Shown: positions 6,494 through 64,000 of the stretch, in pieces
Layout: every line of letters begins with the position of its first letter
How positions within the stretch are numbered: position 1 is the stretch's first letter
From: a virus
Lineage: Duplodnaviria > Heunggongvirae > Uroviricota > Caudoviricetes
Length of the DNA stretch: 64,000 nt
Virus record (IMG/VR): IMGVR_UViG_2778261638_000005
Location: 6,684-70,683 of that record
Strand: one strand, 5' to 3'
Program-made: the position numbers and the translations under genes
Notes under the pieces: model-generated
Database searches by the model: none
The model's input: the letters and a program-made list of their open reading frames with translations, nothing else
What the model was told of the DNA's origin: nothing

Positions 6494-7098
6494 CAGGACA
6501 ACCTCGCAATGGTAAACTCATCAACCGGTGGCTGTGGTTCCTGTGATTCATTCTGGCTATGCGAGCCAGCACTAAGAATCACGCGATTGTACATATTGAG
6601 GGCAAACGTACCGAGGTCTGCATTCCCAGTCAGCGCCATGTTAATAGCTGCCGCAAGACGCCAGGCCAACGCCTCCATAAAAATGGCATCAAACATGTTC
6701 ACATCTGTAACGCGAGAGACATACTTGAGCCATGCCTGAGGCTGGTCTGTGTAGATCAACTTTCCTGTTCCGTTGGTGTCTGCACCAACTTCGTACTGAA
6801 CGCGCATTGCTGCTGTTGGATTGCGTACACCAGGAAGCATAATTTCAGTAATGCGCAGACAATCGGACGGGTACTGATACGCATATTCCCAGTCAGGCGG
6901 TGGATTGCTCGTATCTGCAAGCGACACGCGTTTGGTAGCAAAGTTCCAGTCAAAATCAGAAAGCACAGCATCACGGCAGGCCTCAAAGTGCAGCGAACAT
7001 TCCCCCGCTTCCTTGCTGGCTTCCGTCAGGCTGTTAATGCTGCGGCTATTGCCAATATTGGACAGCGCACGATTGCAGATCTCTACTACAGAGGCCAT
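6493..7098 (-). CDS. tail tubular protein A-like (adaptor) protein
   Basis: 201 aa; N-terminal LSNIG...SL pattern recalls T7 gp11; follows the capsid genes. Confidence 0.4.
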   Translation of the reverse strand: MASVVEICNRALSNIGNSRSINSLTEASKEAGECSLHFEACRDAVLSDFDWNFATKRVSLADTSNPPPDWEYAYQYPSDCLRITEIMLPGVRNPTAAMRVQYEVGADTNGTGKLIYTDQPQAWLKYVSRVTDVNMFDAIFMEALAWRLAAAINMALTGNADLGTFALNMYNRVILSAGSHSQNESQEPQPPVDEFTIARLS

Positions 7099-16288: not shown

Positions 16289-16617
16289 TCAGGGATGCTG
16301 ATATCATCACCAAGCCACCCTTGACCTTCAGACCAGCATTGCACGTAATACCCGTATTCTGTGTTCACTACGCACCACTGCGCGTCGTCCGGCATTTGCT
16401 CACTACAGCTTATCCAATCATCCGGAGTTACCGGAGAGTTGCCCGATAGCTGGTTCAACTTGTAAGTTTGGCTTACAGGTTCTGCTTCCAGCGATGCCAG
16501 TGCAATTCGTGCCAGCTCTTCCGCTTCTTCTGCTGGCAGTACAACGTTGCTACCAGGTCCGTATGTTTCGCGCCACTGCTTGATTGTCAGCAGTCGCTCT
16601 TTGGTTATAGTGGTCAT
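16234..16617 (-). CDS. DUF551-like prophage protein
   Basis: 127 aa, acidic Trp/Cys-containing C-terminal half typical of DUF551 proteins in enterobacterial prophages. Confidence 0.45.
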   Translation of the reverse strand: MTTITKERLLTIKQWRETYGPGSNVVLPAEEAEELARIALASLEAEPVSQTYKLNQLSGNSPVTPDDWISCSEQMPDDAQWCVVNTEYGYYVQCWSEGQGWLGDDISIPECDVINWMPLPEPPQEVK

Positions 16618-16874
16618 TTGTTAATCCTCAAAACTTTATGCCCGGGCGCAAAAGCACGCGTTTTGTCTTTGCTTATTCGCCAGCCATCCTTGCGCGCCTC
16701 TTTTGCACAGCCAGCCCATGACGTACCTATATACTCACCGAAGTCTGGCGACTTATATTTGCCATCTGTACATTGGAGGCAATCACAATAGAGATGCATG
16801 GTGTAACTTGCAGCGATAGCCATATCACTCTCCTTTAGTGCGCAAGTGGTTTTTCCAGCGGTTTTGCGCCGCAC
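16614..16874 (-). CDS. hypothetical protein
   Basis: 86 aa ORF, Cys-rich. Confidence 0.3.
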   Translation of the reverse strand: MRRKTAGKTTCALKESDMAIAASYTMHLYCDCLQCTDGKYKSPDFGEYIGTSWAGCAKEARKDGWRISKDKTRAFAPGHKVLRINK

Positions 16875-17182
16875 TGGGCTTTTTGCAACAGCTGTGACCC
16901 ATCACCCCGCAACACCCCGTCAACCTCACTCGTCTGTTACTAATCCTCAACCATCGCCAGACCCCAACACCGTTTCTGCTAGCTAACAGAATTTTTGCCT
17001 TACGGTTTTTCATCGTTTTGTTCTCCTGCGTTTCCTTGCTGCTCGTTTCGCCGCTGCAACGCCTGTACGGCGTTTCGGTGCCGGAATGATGCTGTCAGCC
17101 ATCAGGACATACGGCTTTGCAATTAGCGCAGAAGCCCAAAAACGAGTCGGGTACGGTAACAAGCCGATACATGCCACACGCA

Positions 17183-17854
17183 TTACTCACCTCCTTTGAT
17201 GCGAATGCCTGCGGCGCGTGGCACATTAACTTCCACGATGCGCACTGTTGGTTTGTACATCTCAATCGCTGTCAGCCAGTCAGCTCCTGTCATGCGCTTT
17301 TCCGCATCGCCATTAGTCCACTGAACCGGTACACCAATAGCCTTCATCGCAATTTCTATTTCCCCGGCAATGGCGCTTTTCCCGCAACCAGTAAAACCAG
17401 ATACAACGACAAGAACTTCGCCTTTGGCTGGTTTTATTTCCCGAGCTTCCAGTTCTGCTATGCGCTTACTTCCATCCGCGATTACTCCCTCGTAATACTC
17501 ACGCTGCTCGTTGAGTTTTGATTTTGCTTCCTCAAGCTCAACACGCAGTTCCCTTACCGTTAGCGCAATTTCCTCGTTCTCCTGGTCACGGCTTTTGATG
17601 TATTGCTGGTTTCTTTCCCGTTCATCCAGCAGCGCCTGCACTACTTCAGGGTTGAAATCTGCGATATAACGAGCGTTGTTCTCTGCGTTTTTCTGCCCAT
17701 CAAAGCCGGGCCATTTGATAACGTCTTCACATCGTTTATCACCAGGTGTATGCACCGCATATGTACCAGTACCAGACGAAATAAATGCGACCCATTCACC
17801 CTGTGTTGCCAGTTGCGCCGCTTCACGCAGTGCCTGATAGTCAATCTTGCTCAC
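17183..17854 (-). CDS. Ead/Ea22-like protein
   Basis: 223 aa; N-terminal MSKIDYQALREAAQLATQGEW and central coiled coil typical of the Ea22-like family. Confidence 0.5.
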   Translation of the reverse strand: MSKIDYQALREAAQLATQGEWVAFISSGTGTYAVHTPGDKRCEDVIKWPGFDGQKNAENNARYIADFNPEVVQALLDERERNQQYIKSRDQENEEIALTVRELRVELEEAKSKLNEQREYYEGVIADGSKRIAELEAREIKPAKGEVLVVVSGFTGCGKSAIAGEIEIAMKAIGVPVQWTNGDAEKRMTGADWLTAIEMYKPTVRIVEVNVPRAAGIRIKGGE

Positions 17855-18471
17855 TGGTTGCCTCCTTTGCGAAGCTGGGCGGCGATATCTTCGAGAACGC
17901 CATCAGAGAATGAACGGTCAAAATCGCCTTCCGGCGCATTAGCCATAAACTCAGTAGAGGTAAGAATCATCCGGGCAATATCAGCGGCGTTCTTCGCAGT
18001 ATCATCAATAAAACCAGCTTCCCAGGCAGCCAGCATTCTGTTCGCCACAAAGTAAGCGCCCTCCTTGCGTGCTTCAGTCTTCACTTCAGCCAAGAAAGCG
18101 TCGGTGGCTGGGGTTTTTATTTCGTTAAGTGCATCACTGAATCCACCTCTCTCCATACCTAGCTCTGCTTCGTAATCGGCATCGAATGCAGCGTCTTTGC
18201 AGAACTTCTTCAGCTTTGCATTCTCCGCTGCCAGCGCCGAAAACTTCTCGTGTGCCAACTTAACAGCTGCATCAGCCTGCTTAATTGACTCAATCGCTCT
18301 CTGGTGGTCTTCGGCCAGCGCATTAGCACGCACCAGTTGCACTTCCAATTGCGTTGCCAAATTGCTGATCAGCTTTGCCACACTACGCATATCAACGGCC
18401 CCACATTCTGCTTTCAGTTCCGAAGCCATCTCATGCCCGGCGGAAACTAACCCTTTGATATTACTTTCCAT
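17851..18471 (-). CDS. hypothetical protein
   Basis: 206 aa helical protein, overlaps neighbour by 4 nt. Confidence 0.4.
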   Translation of the reverse strand: MESNIKGLVSAGHEMASELKAECGAVDMRSVAKLISNLATQLEVQLVRANALAEDHQRAIESIKQADAAVKLAHEKFSALAAENAKLKKFCKDAAFDADYEAELGMERGGFSDALNEIKTPATDAFLAEVKTEARKEGAYFVANRMLAAWEAGFIDDTAKNAADIARMILTSTEFMANAPEGDFDRSFSDGVLEDIAAQLRKGGNQ

Positions 18472-18532
18472 CTTTACCCTCGCTTATCCACATAACTTAT
18501 TGATTACATTGATAACTAAAAAGATCGTCGAT

Positions 18533-18877
18533 TCAGAACTCTTCGATATTCCAGCCGCCACCTGCTTTCTTTGGCTTAACCGTTACCCCGATGATTCGGA
18601 ACGGATACTGATCTGCGGCGACTTTGGTTTTCACCCTGGCGTCGTCGGTCCAGAAACCTTTCACTTCATGCAGTTCCATCTCACCAGTGGCGAGCATCAC
18701 AGCGAAATCTGGCGTATAGAACGTGTTGTCAGCCAGCCGCAGCTTGATACCCTCGAACCGATACCAGGCGATTTCCCCTGCACGTTTACGCTGCTCAAGG
18801 TGCTGGCAATACGCAGATTCTGTTTTGTTCATCTGGCCTGTTTTGAGTCGACCAAGAGCCTGTATCTGCTTTCTCAT
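18533..18877 (-). CDS. putative PD-(D/E)XK-type nuclease family protein
   Basis: 114 aa; TPDF...GEMELHEVKG resembles a PD..ExK motif; first gene downstream of P in the resident phage. Confidence 0.4.
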   Translation of the reverse strand: MRKQIQALGRLKTGQMNKTESAYCQHLEQRKRAGEIAWYRFEGIKLRLADNTFYTPDFAVMLATGEMELHEVKGFWTDDARVKTKVAADQYPFRIIGVTVKPKKAGGGWNIEEF

Positions 18878-18880
18878 GAT

Positions 18881-18957
18881 TTACCCCTGAGGTAATTAAA
18901 AACCACATAAGACACGAAATCAATAGATTTTAGAATATTTCATTACCCAGAAGGTAA
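18881..18957. promoter_or_regulatory. two TTACC-N5-GGTAA palindromic operator-like sites
   Basis: Perfect copies at 18881-18895 and 18943-18957, same motif as at 58187-58201 and 58899-58913 in the immunity region. Confidence 0.45.
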
Positions 18958-18994
18958 TTATTGAGGCGTAAAAAAATGCGCTATCGCGCTGGTA

Positions 18995-19091
18995 TTACTT
19001 GATAAATCCTGCCGCCTTTCCCCGCCTGTATTCCTCCATCAGCCACTGCGCCGGTGTTATTCCCCCCAGGGTGGCGGCGTTAGGCATGCAC
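18995..19091 (-). pseudogene. displaced 3' end of replication gene P (separated from its 5' part by the Mu-like insertion)
   Basis: Joining host sequence at 56001-56004 to 19091 downwards with one GCAC copy gives an in-frame continuation of P for about 30 codons ending at TAA 18995-18997. Confidence 0.35.
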
Positions 19092-51709: not shown

Positions 51710-52642
51710 TTACCACCAGTTCAGTAATTTCGGGTTGCTGTAAACCTCTTTAAAAGCTGCTTTAATGTAGCCTTTGGATAGAGGAACGCCTTTCCCGCTG
51801 GCAGCCAGCCACGCCTGATTCAGCGTATGAGTTAATACACGTAATGCACCTGGTTTTTCCGCGATGCTCTGCATGAGTGATAATTCATCTTCGCCCTCAA
51901 TGCCCCAGGCTTTCGCAATTGCCACCACGTCAGCCTTTTTGGCTTTACGTAGTTGCTTTGTTCTGGCGAAACGACTGAACAAACGTGCAAGGTCATCTGT
52001 TCCCCGGTGTGTGGCTTTGGCTAACTGGTGTGGGTTGCCAATCAATACCATCCCGACGCCGGTTGCATCCTGAATGGCGCGTAACTGCTCCAGCCCGTCC
52101 ATGCTCAGGTGGTCAGCTTCATCCACAATAACCAGACCGCGTGTGCCATTCAGTTTTTTGCGAATGGCGCGGGTCAATGCGCCTTTATTCCTTTGCGGAT
52201 TATCAATTCCCAGCGCGTCTGCCAGCTCCAGCAGACACTCAGTCACTGTTGAGTGTGCAGGGGAAAGGGTCACCATCCAGGTATTAGATACACGGTTACT
52301 GTATTCACGGGCCGCAACGGTTTTACCAACACCCGGCACACCAACCAGAACGCTGATACAGCCCATAACACGCACGGTCTGAAACAGCTCGCGCAAATCA
52401 CGGAGGGTTTGTGTTTCCACAAGTTGTGGTGCGCCAGGTAACTCCAGACTTTTTTGCCAGCTCTGATGCCACATCAGTAATTTGTCATGCATCCCTTCGG
52501 TATCACCTTTGTAACGGCCTTTGCGAAGTTCAGAAAGAGTGGCCTCCGACACCCCCGCTTCTTTAGCAATAGCGCTTTGTGTTTTTACGCCGTCAGTAAT
52601 AAGTGTGTTAATCGTGTTGAAAACATCATTAATATCGGTCAT
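51710..52642 (-). CDS. B: transposition ATPase B (target DNA activator)
   Basis: 310 aa; Walker A GVPGVGKT, Walker B LVIVDEADHL; N-terminal HTH; downstream of transposase. Confidence 0.9.
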   Translation of the reverse strand: MTDINDVFNTINTLITDGVKTQSAIAKEAGVSEATLSELRKGRYKGDTEGMHDKLLMWHQSWQKSLELPGAPQLVETQTLRDLRELFQTVRVMGCISVLVGVPGVGKTVAAREYSNRVSNTWMVTLSPAHSTVTECLLELADALGIDNPQRNKGALTRAIRKKLNGTRGLVIVDEADHLSMDGLEQLRAIQDATGVGMVLIGNPHQLAKATHRGTDDLARLFSRFARTKQLRKAKKADVVAIAKAWGIEGEDELSLMQSIAEKPGALRVLTHTLNQAWLAASGKGVPLSKGYIKAAFKEVYSNPKLLNWW

Positions 52643-52715: not shown

Positions 52716-54803
52716 TCAGGCCAGCGGATCATCCTGTTCCTGTATGGCTACAAGCTTCTGCAAACCCAGCCTGAAATCGCGTTCATAATCTTCGTCGTAA
52801 TCCTCCTCATAATCCTGTTGCTGGATGGTTACCGTATTGCCAACCGGGCGATAAACATTATCCAGCCAGGGTTCAGCCTGTTTGTGCTCCAGTATCTGAA
52901 TGCCTTCATCCTCAGCATCACGAATTTTTTCCTCAGCACGTTTGCGCATTCCTTTAATACGCTGCTGTTGTTTGTGATATTCAGCACTGACAGCAAAGGC
53001 TGCGCGTTTATTGCCGTTCCATATCGCCTCACAGATAAAGCTGCCGTCCTTGCGACGTACCGTAATTCGCTCGGCGTCATGAATGTCATAACTGATAAGT
53101 ACTTTGCGACCGTGTTCGTCACGCAACTCCGGCGCGTAGTAAATATTGTTCAGCCACTGAATTTCGCACCGTCTTACCGGGCGTTCCACCATCGGGCGGA
53201 ACATGTCGCGCAGCTCAAGATCACTCAGCCACTCAATTTCGGTGCCTTCTTCTGCCAGGCGTTTTTTTCTGAACTCTGCCGGGCTGTAATGCCGCCCGTT
53301 CGGTTTCATTGGCAGCTCAGAATGCGGGCGGTTGTTGTACCATTCCACGCCTTCACGAATAGCCTCAATAAGCTCCGCCCACGATGGTAGCTCGCGCATT
53401 GCAGCTTTCTGGCGGTCGTTCAGAGGCTTGTCCTGTTGCATGGCGTTAAACGCTGAACGCAGATCACGGTTAAGTACACGCAACGATTCCCGGTCAGCAC
53501 CCTTGCCAAAATAGGTGCGATACCTCCTGGCTATACGCATCGGCAGTGTCCGGTTCAGGCGTTCAATAATGCCGCGCCCCTGTGGATTACCGGCAATACC
53601 GGTAGGGTGTTTAATCCCCAGGCGGGGCAGAATACCCACGATCTCTTTGTCCAGTATGTCAGCCGTTTCACCAGAACCATTATCCGAGTAATACAGAAAC
53701 GGTTTTCCGTGGTTGCGAATGCCGTGCTGTATCGCACCGGCAACGGCGAACACGTTCTCGGCAAGGTCAAGACTCCAGCCAACAACAAACCGGGTTCCAC
53801 CGTCGATCACAAATGTAACTTCCGGTGAGAATGGACGCCCGTGGATCGGATGTGCACATTTCAGCTTCATACCGTGACCGTCACCAATCCAGACATAATT
53901 CACCGGCATAGCTGTCCAGTCGCGGCGGGTGAATCCTTCAAGCTGACGGTATTCACTGCCGGTAACGCGCCCTTTTTGTTTCACCACTTCCGGCAGTTTT
54001 TTCATGGCATACCGGACAACATCATAGGAAGGCATCACCTCCAGCATGTATGGTTCGTCCGCATGGCGACGCTGCCAATCAGCGACAAAATCCTCATAGG
54101 CTTCAGACATAGGCCTGCCGTTAGCCTGACGATACTGCGCCAGAAATTCAGGCAGCCAGCTAATTTCTTCCGGTTTTATTTCGTCGCGCTTTCCTGGTGC
54201 CAGTAACAGCAGTCGTTCTGCGGCATTCTGTGCTTTGTTAAACGCAGCTATCCAACGTTTGAGCGTAATTGCGCTCAGAGTTCGCTCTTTTCCTTTACGG
54301 GCATTAGCAGTAATGACCAAAGATTCCAGGCGTTCTTCCAGGTTACCCTGCGCTAACCGCGACACAATAAAACGTATAGCGCTGGCACAACTGAATCCCG
54401 GCTCCTGGCTAATTCGTAGAACTTCACAGACAAGAGCAATGCGCGCTTCTGCAACTTTACGTTGATTTTCCGTAAGCGCATTCAGACGCTCTTCTACCAA
54501 TTGTGGCGAACCGCGATATGCCTCAACAGGCTGTACAACATTTTGTTTGCGTTCACGCTTTACAGGAGGCTGGGTAGTTATCTCCCGCGGGGCGCTTGCC
54601 ATCAGTTGAGCTACATGTCGCTCACGTAACGCCCGTTGTGTAACCGGAGGGAGGCAGTCGATGCTGTATTCAATGGTTTTTGAACCCGCACGTTTGCGCC
54701 TGAAATGCTCAGATGAGGCCAGTTTCCTTATGGAATACCGCACCCCTTGCGCAGTTCCCGGCATACCTGGTAACCCTACAAGCTCATTAACTGATACAAA
54801 CAT
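52716..54803 (-). CDS. A: DDE transposase A
   Basis: 695 aa; Mu-A-like catalytic core; N-terminal end-binding domain diverged from Mu A as recalled. Confidence 0.9.
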   Translation of the reverse strand: MFVSVNELVGLPGMPGTAQGVRYSIRKLASSEHFRRKRAGSKTIEYSIDCLPPVTQRALRERHVAQLMASAPREITTQPPVKRERKQNVVQPVEAYRGSPQLVEERLNALTENQRKVAEARIALVCEVLRISQEPGFSCASAIRFIVSRLAQGNLEERLESLVITANARKGKERTLSAITLKRWIAAFNKAQNAAERLLLLAPGKRDEIKPEEISWLPEFLAQYRQANGRPMSEAYEDFVADWQRRHADEPYMLEVMPSYDVVRYAMKKLPEVVKQKGRVTGSEYRQLEGFTRRDWTAMPVNYVWIGDGHGMKLKCAHPIHGRPFSPEVTFVIDGGTRFVVGWSLDLAENVFAVAGAIQHGIRNHGKPFLYYSDNGSGETADILDKEIVGILPRLGIKHPTGIAGNPQGRGIIERLNRTLPMRIARRYRTYFGKGADRESLRVLNRDLRSAFNAMQQDKPLNDRQKAAMRELPSWAELIEAIREGVEWYNNRPHSELPMKPNGRHYSPAEFRKKRLAEEGTEIEWLSDLELRDMFRPMVERPVRRCEIQWLNNIYYAPELRDEHGRKVLISYDIHDAERITVRRKDGSFICEAIWNGNKRAAFAVSAEYHKQQQRIKGMRKRAEEKIRDAEDEGIQILEHKQAEPWLDNVYRPVGNTVTIQQQDYEEDYDEDYERDFRLGLQKLVAIQEQDDPLA

Positions 54804-54805
54804 TT

Positions 54806-55042
54806 TTATGCCACCTTACGAGCGTAACGGCTGGGCCAGATCTCCTCCGGCGCAACACCAATAGCATCAGCAATAATGCGCTCATATTTTGGGCATTTGC
54901 GGTACAGGGCATTCTTTAAAGAATCCTGGTTTAAACCGGCTTCAATGGACAGAGAGCGTAAAGTAAAACCTTTTACATGCACCGCCGCGACAACATGCGC
55001 GGGGTGCCAGTCCTGTTTAACAACTTCATTTATAGACATCAT
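54806..55042 (-). CDS. ner: Ner-like DNA-binding regulator
   Basis: Probable start MMSINEV at 55042 with AAGGA RBS; C-terminal EEIWPSRY matches Ner family. Confidence 0.8.
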   Translation of the reverse strand: MMSINEVVKQDWHPAHVVAAVHVKGFTLRSLSIEAGLNQDSLKNALYRKCPKYERIIADAIGVAPEEIWPSRYARKVA

Positions 55043-55182
55043 TCGTTTATCCTTAAAAGTTATCTGCGCGGATAACACCGCCGGATAATCTCTACAGATA
55101 AATATTTGATCACTACAAAAGAAAAGTAAAGGTGTTTTATCTCTTTCTTTGGTTGTTTTTATCTACAAAAGGATATTTCTTT
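55043..55182. promoter_or_regulatory. divergent early promoter/operator region between ner and c
   Basis: 140-bp AT-rich intergenic region between divergent repressor and ner genes. Confidence 0.5.
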
Positions 55183-55767
55183 ATGAATCATATGGTTAAC
55201 AGAAAAGAAAGAAGCACTGAAAAAGAAAGTGATTTTTCTTTTCCTGTGTTTCAAAAAGAAAGCATTAAAGAGCGCCTAGCCATGCTAATGCGCGGGCGCT
55301 CCAAGACTGCCGTGGCGAAGGCGTGGGGGCTACCGTTCTCAACACTTAACAACTACTTTGAGAAAGATGCGACACCATCTCTACAAGTAGCTAGTCAGAT
55401 TGCTTTTGCAGAAGGGGTGAGCATTGATTGGCTTGTTTTTGGCAAGGAGGATATAGAACCAATATCACCTAAAATAGATGAAAACGTCCAATTGCCCCTA
55501 GATATAACGCTACAGCGCCTTCTTGCTATACTAAGTGCTTTAGAAGCATCAGAGGCAGAGCGATTATCAAAAATCCTCGCGCTAAATGGAGCTAAGTACT
55601 TGTCACGGTTACTTGAACCAGAGAATCAAGAACTAATCCAACTTGAAGGACGAAAACGTGCAGCAGCTCTACTTTTAGATCATTTATCGGATGAAAGAGT
55701 TAGAGAGATTTTGGCAGAAATTGAAAGCGATAAACTCTCAAGTAGTTTAGAATCGAAGGCGGGCTAA
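55183..55767 (+). CDS. Mu-type c repressor
   Basis: 194 aa from ATG 55183 (AAGGA RBS); divergent from ner, reads toward left end. Confidence 0.7.
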   Translation: MNHMVNRKERSTEKESDFSFPVFQKESIKERLAMLMRGRSKTAVAKAWGLPFSTLNNYFEKDATPSLQVASQIAFAEGVSIDWLVFGKEDIEPISPKIDENVQLPLDITLQRLLAILSALEASEAERLSKILALNGAKYLSRLLEPENQELIQLEGRKRAAALLLDHLSDERVREILAEIESDKLSSSLESKAG

Positions 55768-55829: not shown

Positions 55830-56000
55830 GTATCAAATATTTTTTCGTTTTTAGCTTTCTTTGCGACAGTAGTATCAAATCACATGTTGTGCGCATAACA
55901 CTGTTTTACGTCATAACTGTTTGTTTTATCCCATCAAATCCCGTTTGATCCACTTTCCTCCCGGATTTTTCAGCAGTATCAAATGATTTACCTCTCTATA
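55830..56000. repeat. left-end transposase-binding repeats (three GTATCAAA cores, attL-like)
   Basis: Cores at 55830-55837, 55872-55879, 55976-55983; spacing 42 and 104 bp mirrors Mu L3-L2-L1; adjacent sequence GAAAAATCCGGGAGG...GATGGGAT resembles the Mu left end. Confidence 0.6.
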
Positions 56001-56639
56001 GCACCCGAAACTTCGCCCTGGTGGATGGTAAACGTCTCTCCCTGTTTCCGGAGGCGTACTCATGGGTTCTGGCTTTGCCTGTATGCTGATCACCGGATCG
56101 GGTATCTGCTGTCCGGAAGCCACCTTTTTCGCCCAATCATCGAGCAGCCTGCGCGCGTGTTTCTCAACCTCAATCTCGCTAAGCTGGCGCTGATACATTG
56201 CACGGCGGGTATCACATACGACCCAGTACATAACCGGATGCCGCCACGGGAATCTTTCGGGACCACCAGGATATAAACTTTTTTCCTTGCTGTACCGGTG
56301 AAACTCCGTCATCACATCGTCAATGGTGACGCCAAGAACCATCTTGCTGTCTTTGCACCACTTGATGAATTGCCCTGGCGACGGCCAGAACGGAGAATCA
56401 CTGGCGCGGGCGTGGCGCATACCAGCAGAAACCTGTTCACGGGTTCGGATCCCCCCTTCAGCAAACGCAGCAATCCACTGCTGTTTTGCAGCAACTTCCT
56501 GCTCTGGCGTCTTCAGGTTGGTTACCACTGCCGCCGGAAACAGTTGTTTCAACTGTTTGAAAAGGGCATCAACAAGCCTCTCTGCTGACATGTTCACTAC
56601 GTTGTCATTGTTGGTGTACTGATGCTCATAACCTGACAT
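55926..56639 (-). CDS. lambda P-like replication protein, 3' end interrupted by Mu-like insertion
   Basis: FAEGGIRTREQVSAGMRHARASDSPFWPSPGQFIKWCKD matches lambda P core; the last 24 codons are encoded by the Mu-like left end. Confidence 0.75.
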   Translation of the reverse strand: MSGYEHQYTNNDNVVNMSAERLVDALFKQLKQLFPAAVVTNLKTPEQEVAAKQQWIAAFAEGGIRTREQVSAGMRHARASDSPFWPSPGQFIKWCKDSKMVLGVTIDDVMTEFHRYSKEKSLYPGGPERFPWRHPVMYWVVCDTRRAMYQRQLSEIEVEKHARRLLDDWAKKVASGQQIPDPVISIQAKPEPMSTPPETGRDVYHPPGRSFGCYREVNHLILLKNPGGKWIKRDLMG

Positions 56640-56689
56640 GCGAGAAAGGGCCTCTCCGTCACGGTTTTGTATTGCGGTAAAAACGTTGT

Positions 56690-57505
56690 TCACAAGAAAT
56701 CCTCCCATGCTTCAGGGCTGTTCCAGTGCGGAACGTTGTTATCAGGTAATGTTGATTGCTTCTGTCTGCTAATCTGCAGCCGCCTTGCCAGCTTCTGCTC
56801 CCACTGTGCCTGATGGTATGCCTTACCCTCAGCCATCCAGTAAATTCTGAACTCTGCAAGTTCCTGTGCCGTTGGCAGACTGTCCAGGTAGATCCCCTGC
56901 AATGAGCTTTTCCGAAGAAAGTCATCTGATGGCTGCCATTGTTCATGCATGACAAATTTGCCTAATTGCCCTGGCCCACCAGGAGGAACAAAGTTATTCA
57001 TCACGGCGTTGTTTGCGCCGGGGTCATGAGGCACAGAATTCCCGTTTTTTGTCCTGCTCTCCCTCTCTTGGTTAAATGACTGGTTATATGACTGGTTCTG
57101 GATCCCGTTTTTGGGATCATTCAACATCCCGTTTTTGGGATCATTCAACATCCCGTTTTTGGTTATATTACCGTTTTCGGGAACATTACCGTTTTCGGGT
57201 TCATTCCCCCCTTCCCGGTTGCCTTTAATGTTCCCGTTTTTGGTTATATTAAGAGAGAAAACCCGCACTCTTTTCGTCGCTCCCTTTCTCTCTTCGGTAT
57301 CTGAAATAAGCCCCATTTTCATGAGCGATATAAGCCCGGCCTGCACGGTTTTTTTATTCAGGCAAGTGTCTTTAACGAGGCGTTCTATGCTGGGGTAGCA
57401 GAGGTTATATTCATCGGCTCTGTCAGCCATCGAGAGCAGTATGAGCTTTAATGATGAGCTACCTGGATCTGTCTCCCAGGCCCAATCTGTTGCATGTCTG
57501 CTCAT
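56690..57505 (-). CDS. lambda O-like replication initiator
   Basis: 271 aa; repetitive Asn/Gly-rich central region encoded by DNA iterons; precedes P. Confidence 0.75.
   Translation of the reverse strand: MSRHATDWAWETDPGSSSLKLILLSMADRADEYNLCYPSIERLVKDTCLNKKTVQAGLISLMKMGLISDTEERKGATKRVRVFSLNITKNGNIKGNREGGNEPENGNVPENGNITKNGMLNDPKNGMLNDPKNGIQNQSYNQSFNQERESRTKNGNSVPHDPGANNAVMNNFVPPGGPGQLGKFVMHEQWQPSDDFLRKSSLQGIYLDSLPTAQELAEFRIYWMAEGKAYHQAQWEQKLARRLQISRQKQSTLPDNNVPHWNSPEAWEDFL
57120..57270. repeat. replication origin iterons inside the O-like gene
   Basis: Tandem repeats such as ATCCCGTTTTTGGGATCATTCAAC (x2), CCCGTTTTTGGTTATATT, ACCGTTTTCGGG (x2). Confidence 0.7.
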
Positions 57506-57520
57506 GATTAATCTCCGCTA

Positions 57521-57784
57521 TCAGCTTGAATGTTGTGGGGAGGAATTAATCATGATCTGCTTAATTTCTGCCCTGATGCGACGGTTTGATTCCATGGTGC
57601 ACTCAACACAGTGTCCGTTGTAAACCCAGCGTTCACTGTCATGTCCGTGCTTACATGGTTTTCCGGTGTAGTAGCGTTTAAGTCCGCGCTTTGCGGCATC
57701 AATACGTGTAATGATTTCCATGGTAAGCCCTGTTATTAGTATTGGGATTACGGTTATTTTGTGCTGACACAAAAAAAAGATCAA
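57521..57784 (-). CDS. small Cys/His-containing regulator (cII-position gene)
   Basis: Probable start MEIITRIDAAKRG; CKHGH...GHCVEC. Confidence 0.35.
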   Translation of the reverse strand: MIFFLCQHKITVIPILITGLTMEIITRIDAAKRGLKRYYTGKPCKHGHDSERWVYNGHCVECTMESNRRIRAEIKQIMINSSPQHSS

Positions 57785-57871
57785 CCAGATTTGGTTTTTT
57801 ATTACCTTTAAGGTGCGAATAGATATGAAAAGACCGCCGGATGGCGGTCTACAGAGGTTTGTGGCTGGATA

Positions 57872-58102
57872 TCATGAGTAGAAGAAGTATGCCAGTTCTG
57901 CTTTTGAGCGCAGCCATTGTCTTGTTTTACAGGCTTTAAAAAGCCCATTCATCAATACTTTACCTGGCATTTTGCGCTTACCTGTTAAGTGAGTCTGGAT
58001 ATAGTGACTCGTCGTTCCGGCTTCCTGTGCGAAGGCTTCACGCTCATCCGGAGTAAGTGCAAGCCAGTGCTTTTTGAAATCGAAATGTCCGTTATCGCTC
58101 AT
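57872..58102 (-). CDS. Cro/YdaS-like HTH regulator
   Basis: 76 aa, divergent from repressor gene, HTH-like TPDEREAFAQEAGTTSHYIQ. Confidence 0.5.
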   Translation of the reverse strand: MSDNGHFDFKKHWLALTPDEREAFAQEAGTTSHYIQTHLTGKRKMPGKVLMNGLFKACKTRQWLRSKAELAYFFYS

Positions 58103-58256
58103 AGCTATTGCCTGATATTTATTTCAGATAATAAATATTCACCCATAAGGTAACAAAAATCAAGGATAGTTACCTATGGGGTGCATTTACCTGTTGGGTA
58201 ATATTGCTTTAAATTGAATCATCTACTGATTCATATATGAGGCGATTTTCCAGAAA
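58103..58256. promoter_or_regulatory. immunity-region divergent promoter/operator
   Basis: Between divergent repressor and cro-like genes; TTACC-tgttg-GGTAA at 58187-58201 and GGTAAC...GTTACC inverted repeat at 58149-58174. Confidence 0.55.
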
Positions 58257-58841
58257 ATGAAAAATATCCAGGACGTCCGCAGGCAAAATCTCAACGACTT
58301 GATCGACCGTGAATTCAATGGTGTTCAGACGCGGATGGCAGAAAAACTTGGAACTCAGGCAAATCTGGTAAACCGCTGGGCTCTTGGCAAGAAGGTTATC
58401 GGCGACCAGGTTGCGCGAAAAATTGAAGCTGCCGCCAATAAACCACGTAACTGGCTTGATATCGATCGCTCGCTTTCTCAGGAGGGTTTTCAGCCTGTTG
58501 GACCAAGCGACATTGGTCAGCTGGCGGCTCACAACCTGGAACGCTGGATGAGTGAAAGCCGCGACCTTTCAACTCAGGGAAAACTTCACCGCGCATCCGG
58601 CGTCGCCCAGGTGACAATCAGCCGCCTGTTAAACAATGAGGTCAGCGTTTCCATTTCCACTCTGGAGAATGTTGCATCTGCATTCGGGCGTCACGGATAT
58701 GAACTACTGATTCACCCGCACGACCCTGCAACTATCAACTATGACCGCTCGCGCTACGCATTGTTACCTGAAACCGAGAAAGCAAAGATCGAAAGTTACA
58801 TTGAATTTGTCATCAACCAGAACGAAAAAAACAAACAATAA
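58257..58841 (+). CDS. putative prophage repressor (two HTH-like segments, no peptidase domain)
   Basis: 194 aa; position and orientation of cI relative to cro-like and O/P. Confidence 0.5.
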   Translation: MKNIQDVRRQNLNDLIDREFNGVQTRMAEKLGTQANLVNRWALGKKVIGDQVARKIEAAANKPRNWLDIDRSLSQEGFQPVGPSDIGQLAAHNLERWMSESRDLSTQGKLHRASGVAQVTISRLLNNEVSVSISTLENVASAFGRHGYELLIHPHDPATINYDRSRYALLPETEKAKIESYIEFVINQNEKNKQ

Positions 58842-58863
58842 AATCATATTTTTCAGTAAGTAA

Positions 58864-58886
58864 GCCGCCATTTGGCGGCTTTTTTA
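58864..58886 (+). terminator. rho-independent terminator after repressor gene
   Basis: GCCGCC-attt-GGCGGC followed by TTTTTTT. Confidence 0.6.
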
Positions 58887-58896
58887 TTGTCTATCT

Positions 58897-58915
58897 AATT
58901 ACCTTGCAGGTAATT
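58897..58915. promoter_or_regulatory. operator palindrome AATTACC-N5-GGTAATT at leftward-type promoter
   Basis: Perfect palindrome with core 58899-58913, followed by TTGACA at 58934. Confidence 0.5.
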
Positions 58916-58994
58916 TTTTTAACTCATATCTATTGACATCAAACCAAATACGCATAATTATTACCTCAACGGTAACAAGCCGAGGTGACAAGTT

Positions 58995-59147
58995 ATGCAG
59001 TGGAAAATTATCAACGGTTGGTACTGTGTTACTGCATGCGGATTCATGAGCTGGAAGTTCCGCACCTTACAGGAAGGCATTAAGTGGGCTTTCGTCAGCA
59101 AAGAAGCTCGCGATGTGGCCAACGATAACGAGATATGGGAGGGCTGA
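58995..59147 (+). CDS. small protein, first gene of the early-left-type operon (not in ORF track)
   Basis: 50 aa from ATG 58995 with GAGG RBS; stop 2 nt before next gene start. Confidence 0.3.
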   Translation: MQWKIINGWYCVTACGFMSWKFRTLQEGIKWAFVSKEARDVANDNEIWEG

Positions 59148-59149
59148 TA

Positions 59150-59449
59150 ATGAACGTTAATCAGCAGAAAAATCTTCAAAAAATCATGCTGGCGTTCGAC
59201 AAGGACTACCGCCTGTCAGAACAGCTATATGACCGACAAGTTGAACTGATTGAGAGCATCCGACTTCATCAACTGGCCTCAACTTTCGACGTTGTAACAG
59301 GCAAAGGCGTTCGCCAGGAAGTACTGGAGGCCGCTAAAGACAGCCCTGAGTTCGAAGAACTAATGGATGCCTACCGGCGAGAGGCAATGGCAATTATCGC
59401 CAGCTGGGATCTGGCAGATCAGCTTGATGGGCAGAGGGACGCGGCATGA
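59150..59449 (+). CDS. hypothetical early protein
   Basis: Probable start MNVNQQKN at 59150; overlaps exonuclease start. Confidence 0.45.
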   Translation: MNVNQQKNLQKIMLAFDKDYRLSEQLYDRQVELIESIRLHQLASTFDVVTGKGVRQEVLEAAKDSPEFEELMDAYRREAMAIIASWDLADQLDGQRDAA

Positions 59450-60267
59450 AACCGGGAATTTATTTCGACATCAGCAACGAAGACTACCACGCCGGTGACG
59501 GCGTGAGTAAGTCGCAACTGGACATGGTTGCCAAGAATCCGGCGCTTCTTAAATGGGTTCAGGCAGCACCAGAAGACGAAGAGAAAAAGTCTGCACTGGA
59601 TATGGGAACCGCATTGCACTGCCTGCTTCTGGAACCTGGAGAATTCGACAAACGCTTCATCGTTTCACCGAAATTCGATCGTCGGACAAAACAAGGTAAA
59701 GCTGACGAAGAAGCATTTCTTCGTGATGTGACGGATATGGGTATTGCGGTACTTGATGTCGAGCAGTGGCGAAAACTGGAGCTGATGCGTGATAGCGCAA
59801 TGGCTCATCCGGCGGCACGCTGGATGTTGGAAGCACCTGGTTACTGCGAAGCATCAATGTACTGGAACGATGAAGAAACGGGTGAGTTGTGCCGAATTCG
59901 TCCAGACAAATGGCTGAACGAGCACAACGTGATCGTCGACGTGAAAAAGGTTGCGGATATGGACCGTTTTGCACGCCACATCGAGGAATTCCGCTACCAC
60001 GTGCAGGACGCAATGTACCGCGAAGGCGCAATGAGGGTTACTGGTCAGCCGCATGGTTTTTTCTTTCTTGCCGTGAGCGAAAGCATTGATTGTGGTCGGT
60101 ATCCGGTACGCGTGTTCGAGCTGGATGCGCAGGATGTCGATGCCGGGCACACTCTGTTCCGCCGGGATCTGAATACCTATCACGAATGCCGCATCAATGA
60201 TGAATGGGGCGGTGTGGAAATCATTAAACGCCCTGAGTGGGCACGCAAACAGGATATGTACATATGA
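59446..60267 (+). CDS. PD-(D/E)XK recombination exonuclease (YqaJ/RecE-type)
   Basis: 273 aa, upstream partner of the annealase; acidic/Lys motif IVDVKK. Confidence 0.6.
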   Translation: MKPGIYFDISNEDYHAGDGVSKSQLDMVAKNPALLKWVQAAPEDEEKKSALDMGTALHCLLLEPGEFDKRFIVSPKFDRRTKQGKADEEAFLRDVTDMGIAVLDVEQWRKLELMRDSAMAHPAARWMLEAPGYCEASMYWNDEETGELCRIRPDKWLNEHNVIVDVKKVADMDRFARHIEEFRYHVQDAMYREGAMRVTGQPHGFFFLAVSESIDCGRYPVRVFELDAQDVDAGHTLFRRDLNTYHECRINDEWGGVEIIKRPEWARKQDMYI

Positions 60268-61205
60268 GCAACGACATCGCAAACATCAACGCACCAGTAG
60301 ACACAGCAATCGCTGGAACTGCTGCAACTATTTTCAGCCCAGACGGCTTGAACCAACTGATGAAATTCGCCGAGGTAATGGCGCAAAGCCGCGTAACGGT
60401 ACCGGCGCACCTCGCCGGGAAACCAGCTGATTGCATGGCCGTGGCAATGCAGGCTGCGCAGTGGGGAATGAACCCGTTTGCCGTGGCTCAGAAAACCCAT
60501 GTTGTGAACGGCACGCTAGGTTATGAAGCCCAATTAGTAAACGCAGTTATCTCAACAATGTCGCCAACAAAAGATCGCATCAACTACGAGTGGTTCGGGC
60601 CGTGGGAACGCGTGATCGGTAAGTTTGTTGAGAAAACATCCAAAAACGGCAATCCGTATATCGCACCAGGCTGGACTCTAAAAGACGAAGAAGGTTGCGG
60701 TGTTCGCGTATGGGCAACCATGAAGGGCGAGGATCAACCTCGAGTGCTTGAGTTAATGCTGTCTCAAGCACAGGTAAGAAACTCCACACTTTGGGCCAGT
60801 GATCCGAAACAACAACTCGCATACCTTGCGACAAAACGCTGGTCTCGCTTGCACTGTCCTGACGTAATCATGGGCGTCTACACACCAGACGAATTACAGG
60901 AAACGGCACCGCGCGTTGAGCGAGACATTACTCCGCAAACGATCACTGCTGCGGGAATGAACAGTCTGATCAACGCTAAACAAGTGAAAAAGCCTGATGA
61001 GCAAACGCGTAAAGCGGATAGCCGTGCTCCAGAAGAAATGCTAATGGCCTTTACCAGCGCAGCGATGAATTACAGCACTGTCTCCGAACTGGATAAGGCT
61101 TACAAATACATTGCACAAAAACTTTCAGATGATGACGAACTGCTGGCAAAAGCCACCGACGTTTACAGCGTTCGTCGGGAAGAATTAAACGAAACATCTA
61201 TGTAA
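60264..61205 (+). CDS. RecT/Red-beta family single-strand annealing protein
   Basis: Start ATG overlaps exonuclease stop (ATGA); ERDITPQTI resembles lambda Bet ERDITPVND. Confidence 0.6.
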   Translation: MSNDIANINAPVDTAIAGTAATIFSPDGLNQLMKFAEVMAQSRVTVPAHLAGKPADCMAVAMQAAQWGMNPFAVAQKTHVVNGTLGYEAQLVNAVISTMSPTKDRINYEWFGPWERVIGKFVEKTSKNGNPYIAPGWTLKDEEGCGVRVWATMKGEDQPRVLELMLSQAQVRNSTLWASDPKQQLAYLATKRWSRLHCPDVIMGVYTPDELQETAPRVERDITPQTITAAGMNSLINAKQVKKPDEQTRKADSRAPEEMLMAFTSAAMNYSTVSELDKAYKYIAQKLSDDDELLAKATDVYSVRREELNETSM

Positions 61206-61254
61206 CCACCACCGCGGCGCCATACGCGCCGCACTGCAACCAAGAGAGGTATTT

Positions 61255-61503
61255 ATGAAAGGTGCATTAGGTAAGAAGGAACTCCTGGCGGTGGTGCCAC
61301 TGTCATGGAGCACTATCGACCGTATGGAGCGCGCAGGGGAATTTCCTAAACGCTGGTATATCACCGATAAACGCTGCGCCTGGAACCGTGATGAAGTTGA
61401 GCGTTGGCTTGATGAACGTCAGGCAGCAAGCCCGGCAGAGTTCCAGGGTAAAAAACCTCCTGTTCAGCAACGTGTATATCGTCCCGTGAGCAACGCGGCA
61501 TGA
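61255..61503 (+). CDS. AlpA/excisionase-like DNA-binding protein
   Basis: 82 aa, winged-helix type motif LSWSTIDRMERAGEFPKRW. Confidence 0.5.
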   Translation: MKGALGKKELLAVVPLSWSTIDRMERAGEFPKRWYITDKRCAWNRDEVERWLDERQAASPAEFQGKKPPVQQRVYRPVSNAA

Positions 61504-61612
61504 GTGCGCTGCTAAGGCACTGGAGCAAATGGTCAGGATGGTACTTATTCCTGGCTTCTGTTTCAGCATGGCTTTATCTGCTGGCATTAATTTTCAGAGA
61601 GGGTTGGATTAA

Positions 61613-61912
61613 GTGAGAAAGTTAAGCCGACTTGAAAAATATCACATGAACAAGGTTTCAATGCGCAGTCCGTCAAAGATTGTCGCAGTTACTCCTGCGG
61701 CGATAGAGTTCGAAAAACGCGCAATTGAAAGAGAGAAAAAAGGACAGTTCCGCATTGCCGCTCACCTTTGGCTTCAGTGTATGGATGTTGCTTCTGGTGA
61801 TGTTGAGCGTGCAAGGATCGCGGTTCGCAGGGACCAATGTATCACAAAAGGTAACGGCCTTCGCCGTGGCGACTATAGCGGCATAGGATGTTGTGGGGTG
61901 GTTTATGACTAA
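61613..61912 (+). CDS. small regulator, possibly ANR-like
   Basis: Probable start MNKVS; FRIAAHLWLQCMDVASGDVERARIAVRRDQC pattern. Confidence 0.3.
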   Translation: MRKLSRLEKYHMNKVSMRSPSKIVAVTPAAIEFEKRAIEREKKGQFRIAAHLWLQCMDVASGDVERARIAVRRDQCITKGNGLRRGDYSGIGCCGVVYD

Positions 61913-62555
61913 GAAATACACACTAATCTATGCAGATCCACCCTGGGTATACCGGGACAAAGCCGCAGATGGTAATCGCGGTGCCGGTTTTAAATATCCG
62001 GTTATGAGTGTGCTGGATATCTGCCGCCTTCCTGTGTGGGATTTGGCCGATGAAAACTGTCTGTTGGCCATGTGGTGGGTGCCAACACAACCACTCGAAG
62101 CACTAAAAGTTGTTGAAGCCTGGGGATTCCGTCTGATGACCATGAAGGGATTCACGTGGATAAAATGTGGTAGTCGACAACCAGATAAACTGGTTATGGG
62201 TATGGGTCACATGACTCGCGCCAATAGTGAAGATTGCCTGTTTGCAGTAAAGGGAAAACTACCTCCGCGCATTAATGCAGGGATCGTTCAGTCATTTACC
62301 GCACCGCGGCTTGAGCATTCAAGAAAACCAGATGTCGTTCGTGAAAAACTTGTGCAATTGTTAGGCGATGTTTCTCGCATTGAACTGTTCGCCCGCCAGT
62401 CGTCTCATGGCTTCGATGTTTGGGGTAATCAGTGCGAAGACCCGGCAGTGCAACTACACCCTGGATACGCGTTGGATATTGCCAGATTAACAAATGCATT
62501 CAGCAATGCTCCGCTGTCACCAACAGACAACCAGGGGCGGGAGCGTGCAGCATGA
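61893..62555 (+). CDS. MT-A70 family N6-adenine DNA methyltransferase (orphan)
   Basis: LIYADPPW catalytic motif near N-terminus; no adjacent restriction gene. Confidence 0.8.
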   Translation: MGWFMTKKYTLIYADPPWVYRDKAADGNRGAGFKYPVMSVLDICRLPVWDLADENCLLAMWWVPTQPLEALKVVEAWGFRLMTMKGFTWIKCGSRQPDKLVMGMGHMTRANSEDCLFAVKGKLPPRINAGIVQSFTAPRLEHSRKPDVVREKLVQLLGDVSRIELFARQSSHGFDVWGNQCEDPAVQLHPGYALDIARLTNAFSNAPLSPTDNQGRERAA

Positions 62556-62746
62556 ACCGGGCATCACCAGCAGATTTAAGGAAATGCCTTGAAACTGCAA
62601 ACATGCTTGCACACAGCGGGATCAGGTTTGTTCCAATTCCCGCTGTCACTGATGCTGAATTTGCAACACTGTCAGCAATATTCGCAGATAAAATTGAATC
62701 ACTGGCAGCAGAAGCCGAGATGGAAGAAAATCAGCAGAATAATTAA
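62552..62746 (+). CDS. small hypothetical protein
   Basis: 64 aa, ATG overlapping methyltransferase stop (ATGA). Confidence 0.4.
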   Translation: MNRASPADLRKCLETANMLAHSGIRFVPIPAVTDAEFATLSAIFADKIESLAAEAEMEENQQNN

Positions 62747-62749
62747 ACG

Positions 62750-64000
62750 TTATTCCCCCGCCATCCACTTCTCAAACTTCGACGGGGAGAACGGAATCAG
62801 ATCCGTATGCTCCCCGTTAATCCAGGAATCAATCATATCGGCCCACTGCTGCAACATGTAGGCGCGCTGTCTGGCATATTCCGCTTTGTTATATACGGCG
62901 CGCACACCTTTCTGCTCATGTGCCAGAGCCTTTTCAATCCAGTCTGAAGGATAACCAGCCTCATGCAACAACGTACTGGCTGTACGGCGCATATCATGTA
63001 CAGTGAAGTCCTGAATATGCTCACCATCTTCATTTATTATTTTCACCGTTCTGTCGATCAGAGAGTTCAGCGCGGCATTAGATAATGGCTTCCGGAAGTT
63101 GTAACGACCAGGAACCAGATATTCACTTCCACCAGCGCACATCTGCAACCCTACCAATATATCCTGTGCCTGTTTAGGCAGGTAAATAACGTGCGCCCGG
63201 CTTCCCTTCATGCGGTCTGAAGGAATTGTCCATGTCCATTTTTTAAAATCTATTTCATCCCACGTTGCATTGGTGAACTCGCCTTTACGAACCATAGTGA
63301 TAAGCACCAGCTTTAAAGCCATTTTCATAGTGCCCATAGCACCAATGGCATCCAGCGTACGGAAGAACAGGCCAATTTCTTCTGGTGTCAGTGTTCGCTC
63401 TCGTGGTTTAAATATGGCGATAGACGAAGGTTTAATGTCAGCCGCAGGATTAAACAAACCATGACCACGGTCATTGGCGTGACGGTATACGCTGCTGATG
63501 ATCTCCCTGGCCTGTACTGCTGTTGCCCGGCCACCGCGTTCGACAATCCGGTCACACAAATCACGAACCATCGATGTGGTAATTTCAGCCATCATTTTGT
63601 TGCCAAGAACCGGAAGTATGTCACGGTCTATCACTGCCTGCTTCATTGCGCGGGTACTTTCAGCCAGGATGACGTGTTTCATATAACTGTCGGTATGTAC
63701 CGAAAACGTCTCGGCACCACGAATCTTTTTGATACCGTCACGTTTAGCCGTAGCCGGTGACTGGCCTGCTTTAAGCAGCTTCTTTGCAGCAATCAGTTCT
63801 TCTCGAGCTTCTGCCAGGCTGATACCGTCACGCCCATACTGCCCGATTACCAGTGTTTCGCGGCGACCGTTGATACGGTAGTCATAGCGAAACGAGACCG
63901 TACCTGACGTAAGTACAGCTACATACAGCCCGTCACGATCGGAGACTTTGTATAGTTTGTCCTGCGGCTTGAGGTTTTTTAATTTTGTATCGGTAAGCAC
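62750..64000 (-). CDS. tyrosine integrase (P4-type family), start at or just beyond window end
   Basis: 416 aa; N-terminal LTDTKLKNLKP; C-terminal catalytic region with R...HDMRRT...Y motif pattern. Confidence 0.85.
   Translation of the reverse strand: MLTDTKLKNLKPQDKLYKVSDRDGLYVAVLTSGTVSFRYDYRINGRRETLVIGQYGRDGISLAEAREELIAAKKLLKAGQSPATAKRDGIKKIRGAETFSVHTDSYMKHVILAESTRAMKQAVIDRDILPVLGNKMMAEITTSMVRDLCDRIVERGGRATAVQAREIISSVYRHANDRGHGLFNPAADIKPSSIAIFKPRERTLTPEEIGLFFRTLDAIGAMGTMKMALKLVLITMVRKGEFTNATWDEIDFKKWTWTIPSDRMKGSRAHVIYLPKQAQDILVGLQMCAGGSEYLVPGRYNFRKPLSNAALNSLIDRTVKIINEDGEHIQDFTVHDMRRTASTLLHEAGYPSDWIEKALAHEQKGVRAVYNKAEYARQRAYMLQQWADMIDSWINGEHTDLIPFSPSKFEKWMAGE

Follow-up and report, generated by a model that had tools for sequence, protein, structure and literature searches.

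Direct repeats inside an HTH_36-family initiator gene as the probable vegetative origin of a phiV10/epsilon15-type prophage

The direct repeats that lie inside the replication initiator gene of this prophage raise the question of whether they are DNA sites of an origin of replication or have another role in the gene. For lambda, P22, and phage L, repeats of this in-gene kind have been accepted or proposed as the origin (PMC8022706). A first-pass annotation of the window (the whole 64,000-nucleotide stretch of tailed-phage DNA analyzed here, positions 6,684 to 70,683 of IMG/VR record IMGVR_UViG_2778261638_000005) had placed an iteron array at 57120-57270 inside an "O-like" gene and had taken it for the lambda-type arrangement, with ori inside O. 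We found that the repeats at 57102-57246 are most likely the initiator-binding iterons of the vegetative origin of a phiV10/epsilon15-type prophage, placed inside the initiator's own gene. This would be a known kind of feature in an uncharacterized initiator family that is different from that of lambda.

A repeat finder detected six in-register units at 57102-57246 on the + strand, starting at 57102, 57126, 57150, 57168, 57186, and 57231 and thus spaced by 24, 24, 18, 18, and 45 nt, and Tandem Repeats Finder described the stretch 57102-57162 as a perfect 24-nt repeat of 2.5 copies. Six + strand occurrences of the core CCGTTTTYGG fall at 57105-57243, with a single other match in the 64-kb window, compared with a mean of 0.50 and a maximum of 2 matches per 64-kb window in dinucleotide-preserving shuffles. 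As mid-gene direct repeats about two helical turns apart, the units span codons 87-135 of the 271-aa initiator gene, share one reading frame in all six copies, and encode the KNG/ENG-rich linker peptide NITKNGNIKGNREGGNEPENGNVPENGNITKNGMLNDPKNGMLNDPKNGIQ. The earlier claims that periodic repeats lie inside the O-like gene and encode an NG-rich protein segment were therefore borne out by the two repeat searches, the shuffle control, and the translation. The interval first given for the array does cover most of it, but the real start is at 57102, so the first unit had been cut, and its end overshoots the last unit by about 15 nt, with nothing repetitive at 57255-57270. Full ATCCC-N6-GGGAT dyads are found in R5 and R6 only (Table 1), and R1 to R4 have CC-N6-GG with partial arms; CCC-N6-GG with weakly symmetric flanks is the family consensus of the iteron units.

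Table 1. Features of the replication region and of the adjoining insertion, in window coordinates
Feature	Position	Strand	Remarks
MuB-like gene	51710-52642
MuA-like gene	52716-54803
Ner-like gene	54806-55078
CI-like gene	55132-55767
Lambda-P-like helicase loader	55926..56708	-	Pfam Phage_lambda_P 1.6e-56; 31% identity to lambda P, 3e-36
Replication initiator gene, 271 aa	56690..57505	-	HTH_36 N-domain, iteron-encoded linker, DnaT-like C-domain
Purine-rich run	57039..57069	-	Gene strand AAGAGAGGGAGAGCAGGACAAAAAACGGGAA; includes degenerate seventh copy 57039-57054
Second repeat element	57062..57098	-	Gene strand GAACCAGTCATAT / AACCAGTCATTT / AACCAAGAGAGG; directly after last iteron
Iteron R6	57102..57117	-	ATCCCAAAAACGGGAT; perfect dyad; closest unit to P gene
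Iteron R5	57126..57141	-	ATCCCAAAAACGGGAT; perfect 5+6+5 dyad
Iteron R4	57150..57165	-	Gene strand ATAACCAAAAACGGGAT
Iteron R3	57168..57183	-	Core CCGAAAACGG; 18 nt from R2
Iteron R2	57186..57201	-	Core CCGAAAACGG
Iteron R1	57231..57246	-	Gene strand ATAACCAAAAACGGGA; isolated, 45 nt upstream of R2
Winged-helix N-domain coding part, aa 1-85	57251..57505	-	From alignments; presumed iteron-binding domain
Terminator-like site	57850-57831		Consensus scan
Cro-like gene	57872-58102	-
Promoter-like site	58128..58156	-	Upstream of cro-like gene, between cro-like and repressor-like genes
Repressor-like gene	58257-58841	+	Divergent

Several other sequences in and around the array were considered. The degenerate seventh copy (CCGTTTTTTG) is probably not an iteron, since its codons vary freely among close relatives, in which this stretch is read as RTKNGN, RTKTGD, RTKSGD, RTKAGD, or RTKTRG. 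Two terminator-like calls of the consensus scan (57112-57131 and 57136-57155, + strand) are not terminators, because they consist of facing iteron arms (GGGAT...ATCCC) and the T-run of the next core and are antisense to the gene. No DnaA boxes were found near the array. Three GATC sites, made by the arms of R5 and R6, lie within 42 bp (57101, 57115, and 57139), compared with a window average of 2.9 per kb, so that binding at these units could be sensitive to Dam methylation or SeqA. A perfect 10-bp inverted repeat (AAGAGAGAAA / TTTCTCTCTT; 57251-57260 and 57285-57294), its arms 24 nt apart, precedes the array closely within the coding region when the gene is read in its own direction.

The protein encoded by this gene matches the Pfam winged helix HTH_36 (aa 18-67, 1.8e-10) and DnaT (aa 184-252, 1.1e-15), as well as PHROG 1032, "replication initiation protein" (1.8e-107). 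Its C-domain resembles E. coli DnaT residues 85-170 in solved structures (PDB 9zbt and 4ou6, 6e-21; E about 1e-20 with 4ou7 included), and a 40-sequence profile of the N-domain gave only non-significant matches to winged-helix regulators among solved structures (E > 0.1). Phage phiV10 (Uetakevirus) and related phages have a gene with 96-99% identity to this one, and of 5426 complete E. coli genomes, 424 carry a copy with 90% identity or more, which is annotated there as a "DnaT-like ssDNA-binding domain-containing protein" or "primosomal protein." The loader gene is directly downstream and overlaps the initiator stop codon, and upstream of the initiator are a small ORF, the cro-like gene, and the divergent repressor-like gene, which is the lambdoid early-right layout. 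The promoter-like site in front of the cro-like gene (9 of 12 consensus matches) is a candidate source of transcription through the origin, in a region where the consensus scan found such sites at no more than the chance number.

We found that the term "O-like" fits the gene in architecture and role and does not fit it in sequence. The initiator gave no significant BLASTP match to lambda O and no Pfam match to Phage_rep_O (PF04492), matching HTH_36 and DnaT only, whereas lambda O matches PF04492 at 5.7e-36. Membership in the lambda O family was rejected after BLASTP and two profile comparisons had given nothing significant; the hhalign comparison with lambda O is weak (E about 0.004, probability 7-9%), and it does align, in each protein, the helix and wing that immediately precede the portion encoded by the iterons. 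The proposed ori-within-O arrangement itself was supported by comparison, as the iterons lie between a winged-helix N-domain and a C-domain and a P-like loader gene comes next.

If the repeats are binding sites of the initiator, they would be expected to accompany its winged helix. A search of species-representative genomes with an N-domain profile yielded 80 loci from many genera; four of these, with ORFs that were too short, were left out, and the genes of phages GF-2, Her, PPompW, and AP22 and of the window were added, for a set of 80 genes. Acinetobacter contributes about half of these comparison loci, and the counts given below therefore overstate the number of independent events. (An alignment-based scan of viral contigs gave near-identical relatives again, and the diverse set is the one from the genome collection.) The N-domain (aa 1-85) has 36-86% identity to those of relatives that all have an array, and arrays of the form CCC-(A/T-rich 6)-GG are found at the same place in the GF-2, Her, PPompW, and AP22 phages. 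By tblastn, the initiator is modular: residues 1 to about 140, comprising the winged helix and the linker encoded by the repeats, are common to Edwardsiella, Vibrio, Acinetobacter, and other phages, and residues from about 160 to 271 to a different set. No array or motif was found in the initiators of SPN1S, Tyrion, and TL-2011b, which have the same DnaT-like C-domain and another N-domain. The array is thus present in N-domain relatives and absent from C-domain-only ones, and it therefore travels with the winged helix, as expected for binding sites.

The initiator of Edwardsiella phage GF-2 (L004 2501-4026) is a natural chimera in which an HTH_36 N-domain and a CCCAAAATTGGG array are joined to the C-terminal half of lambda O. 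Its N-domain is 49% identical to the window protein over residues 1-139 of the latter, and from residue 137 onward the GF-2 initiator matches lambda O residues 156-299 with 62% identity (E 2e-67); the gene that follows is 55% identical to lambda P. Judged by these alignments, the winged helix and array of GF-2 exactly replace the lambda O N-domain and ori-lambda in a lambda-type O-P module.

On the P side of the array we found a second repeat element (Table 1), in which Tandem Repeats Finder detected repeats of period 12 at 57069-57097. Most relatives, among L004, L005, and L097-L176, have about three such 12- to 13-nt repeats (RAAYCNNTCAWW) after the last iteron, often followed by an A-run. 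Chains of at least three RAAYC motifs at intervals of 11-14 nt were present within 60 nt after the array at 41 of 66 loci, compared with 1 of 1938 control windows from the same genes, and the spacings in these chains were 12 nt (52 cases) and 13 nt (39 cases). RAAYC chains in more than one reading frame numbered 44; GAAYCAGTCA, for example, is read as NQS and as EPV. Since the 12- to 13-nt repeats are read in different frames, they are evidently kept as DNA. The 60 nt after the array are also richer in A+T than the whole gene (61.7% versus 54.8% in 67 relatives; paired t = 9.5, p = 5e-14). In the window, the segment at 57064-57093 (GC 0.33) ranks second among the 30-mers of the gene in order of increasing stability, with a modest A+T content and no strong tract; the least stable 30-mer coincides with iteron R1 and so does not lie downstream of the array, and GC falls to a minimum of about 0.27-0.33. 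We propose 57062-57098 as the unwinding region. The triple 12- to 13-nt repeat is apparently undescribed in the literature searched, and RAAYCNNTCAWW may resemble the oriC 13-mers, short repeats of about 13 nt that serve as an unwinding element, in being a sequence-specific site for unwinding or for single-strand binding.

These data also bear on the alternative that the initiator binds the units for purposes of control (autoregulation, titration, handcuffing, or exclusion of related phages) and that the true origin is elsewhere in the prophage. There is precedent for such roles, as iterons have a part in the copy control of plasmids and related phages are inhibited by cloned ori-lambda (PMC3349717, PMC4488673), and the weakness of the A+T-rich tract in the window would fit as well. 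However, the second element and A+T-enriched tract after the array form an origin-like layout, the GF-2 module takes the exact place of ori-lambda, and the window has no other cluster of the motif, only one lone match at 60640. We consider it unlikely that the units serve control instead of initiation, and we continue to read them as the iterons of an origin.

A different objection is that the repeat is a feature of the protein, an Asn/Gly-rich linker, flexible and of low complexity, that was lengthened by in-frame duplications, in DNA without a function of its own. The window alone is compatible with this: its copies are in one frame at spacings that are multiples of 3, they encode KNG/ENG, and their number changes by in-frame units in close relatives. 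The frame argument therefore rests on the more distant relatives. In the 80 genes, the most repeated 12-mer (at most 2 mismatches) had a median of 5 copies, compared with a mean of 2.5 in codon-shuffled genes, and at least 4 copies were present in 72 of the 80; the first copy was at a median of nt 292, just past the part coding for the winged helix. The commonest spacings between copies were 17 nt (74 cases), 24 nt (61), and 22 nt (54), with 25 nt also common, and many are not multiples of 3. Copies were in more than one reading frame at 62 of 80 loci and in all three frames at 39, and 126 instances of a strict pattern were divided 90/26/10 among frames 0/1/2, so that CCCAAAAACGG is read as PKNG, (S/T)QKR, or (V/I)PKTE, depending on frame. 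This pattern of multiple frames holds in Enterobacteriaceae, Vibrio, Pseudoalteromonas, and Marinomonas.

Motifs 17, 22, or 25 nt apart that encode unrelated peptides in two or three frames are not what a peptide repeat would produce. Even within one frame, the residues vary (KNG, KIG, IYG, KFG, and ENG) while CCC-N6-GG is kept; across relatives of several genera, proline is invariably encoded by CCC while the residues after it shift among N, I, Y, and F. Some of these hosts use the CCC codon rarely. In addition, two of the window units are perfect 16-bp palindromes, for which a peptide repeat has no need. Multi-frame copies in relatives therefore indicate that selection keeps the DNA sequence and not the peptide, and a linker repeat without DNA function is very improbable; on this comparative evidence, the KNG/ENG peptide arises as a by-product of these sites. 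One consensus, RAAnAnnCCCAAAAACGGnA, is followed by the sites across a range that takes in Enterobacteriaceae, Vibrio, and Acinetobacter; the core variants are CCCAAAAACGG, CCAACAAYGG, CCCAAAAGTGG, and CCCCCGAAC. Variant arrays were also found in Desulfovibrionaceae, and the signal in Sphingomonadales is weak or partly at chance level.

The number of units is variable among close relatives. Counts in about 80 near-identical viral contigs (IMG/VR, within L008-L096) range from 1 to 6 for the 24-nt unit (MLNDPKNG) and from 1 to 4 for the 18-nt unit (N-V/I-T/P-ENG), the change being by whole units throughout. The 12-nt repeat has two or three copies, and protein lengths are 263-295 aa among these near-identical prophages. 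The Stx phages 933W and P27 are alike in that iteron number differs between close relatives (6 in Stx phages versus 4 in lambda; PMC7466680), and they differ in having true lambda O and lambda iterons. This instability, and the domain junction that lies just past the array, could suggest slippage- or recombination-prone sequence that marks the junction of N- and C-domain modules as a side effect of mosaic exchange, but such a scar would keep neither RAAnAnnCCCAAAAACGGnA across that range of bacteria, with related variants in Desulfovibrionaceae, nor a defined second element alongside, and we give this account hardly any credence.

With the origin reading thus preferred, the locus can be set beside systems that are already known. 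Lambda has four iterons and an A+T-rich tract in the middle of O, and Stx phages have six iterons (PMC7466680). As in ori-lambda, the window has direct repeats in the middle of the initiator gene with an internal dyad, here complete in two of the six units, and an A-rich center (lambda TCCCTCAAAACGAGGGA, here ATCCCAAAAACGGGAT), which follow the DNA-binding N-domain and encode a linker, with a less stable tract on the P side and a P-type loader gene next. Compared directly, the units and lambda's own iterons (ATCCCTCAAAACGAGGGAA and similar) have the layout of CCC, A-rich center, and GGG in common and are not alignable beyond it. The two systems differ in the N-domain (Phage_rep_O in lambda, HTH_36 here), in the C-domain (lambda O type versus DnaT-like), in the array (four iterons at about 20-24 bp versus six units at 18-24 bp), and in the adjacent tract, which is a clear 40-bp A+T-rich tract in lambda and consists here of 12-mer repeats with about 33-40% GC.

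Gene 18 of P22 has four repeats, and gene 18 of phage L has six 11-bp repeats that its authors regard as the likely origin (PMC8022706). These too are distant O-type initiators with in-gene repeats of their own, for which the origin was assigned from sequence, and the phage L unit TGTCCAACGGA resembles Acinetobacter-type units such as CAGTCCCAACAACGG; they differ in that the initiator is paired with a DnaB-type helicase (gp12) and not with a P-type loader. A further parallel is the DopC/DopE pair, chromosomal genes domesticated from a phage O-P pair, for which an HTH_36 N-domain and a DnaT C-terminal motif beside a P-like gene have been described (Brezellec et al. 2017, PMC5509034). The window pair has the same two-gene layout, with HTH_36 N-domain, DnaT C-domain, and adjacent P-like gene. 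In contrast to the phage version, which keeps the array, dopC was reported to have no iteron-like sequences and no origin (PMC5509034).

Parallels are also offered by iteron plasmids and by oriC, which have no sequence similarity to the array; the window also differs from them in having no DnaA box nearby. In the plasmids (RK2 TrfA, R6K pi, and pPS10 RepA), winged-helix initiators bind tandem iterons beside an unwinding element of repeats of about 13 nt, and the origin is usually outside the initiator gene. Searches for phiV10 together with iterons, and for the motif, found no papers on these iterons, and a search of the epsilon15 origin and primosomal literature gave nothing informative for this phage group; the array and second element of the HTH_36 initiator family thus appear to be undescribed in the literature searched.

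Initiation could proceed as follows. Transcription from an early promoter beside the repressor gene, whose activity is predicted from the gene anatomy described above, would traverse the cro-like gene and continue into those for the initiator and the P-like loader. By analogy with lambda, the winged helix (aa 1-85) would bind the 16-bp units, a dimer probably occupying each ATCCC-N6-GGGAT dyad, and the six sites, 18-24 bp apart, would assemble a complex like the lambda "O-some." Strain from this complex might then open the adjacent 12-mer repeats and the A+T-richer region at 57062-57098, and the DnaT-like C-domain would recruit the P-like loader with host DnaB, or hold the opened single strand, or both.

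We found the two-part layout, an array followed by the second element, in Enterobacteriaceae, Vibrio, Pseudoalteromonas, Marinomonas, and Acinetobacter. A more tentative generalization, which may be right and which we hold to be somewhat less probable than not, is that the large family of prophages with HTH_36 initiators has one conserved two-part in-gene origin made of CCCAAAAACGG-type iterons and the RAAYCNNTCAWW triple repeat. For the locus itself, our reading would place the likely origin of a common type of E. coli prophage, including phiV10 of E. coli O157:H7, and would extend lambda's origin-inside-initiator arrangement to the HTH_36 family, which has no detectable similarity to O. It would also supply the ancestral, iteron-bearing state for the domesticated DopC/DopE pair. 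For annotation, it would help where iteron arms are called terminators and where the protein is named "primosomal protein" or "DnaT-like" and not an origin-binding initiator, and it illustrates a simple sequence test, by which a repeat read in several frames is taken as a DNA signal and not a peptide repeat.

The prophage in the window has been interrupted by a second one. The segment at 19092-56000 (36.9 kb) is an insertion, as 18082-19091 and 56001-64000 are adjacent in the near-identical prophage at guaA of WP3-S18-ESBL-09. The flanks of the insertion overlap by 4 bp, GCAC, at the junctions 19091/19092 and 56000/56001, and its ends carry repeated ATTTGATAC motifs in inverted orientation. 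Its genes include those for MuA-, MuB-, Ner-, and CI-like proteins (Table 1), and a part of the segment shares 96% identity with Yersinia phage vB_YpM_5. This Mu-like prophage sits inside the P-like gene, in which the native portion is 56001-56708, or 236 codons; in place of the final 25 codons of the loader stand 24 foreign ones from the end of the Mu-like prophage, and the Pfam P domain (aa 45-205) is intact. The host prophage is therefore split in two and its loader altered, while the cis-acting origin sequence is intact; with this loss from the end of the loader, the trans function of the module may be gone. Elsewhere in the host prophage, the nin-like region at 16482-18082 differs from its counterpart in WP3-S18-ESBL-09 (L001 8228-10306), the two prophages being otherwise 99.9% identical, and this difference looks like a mosaic replacement.
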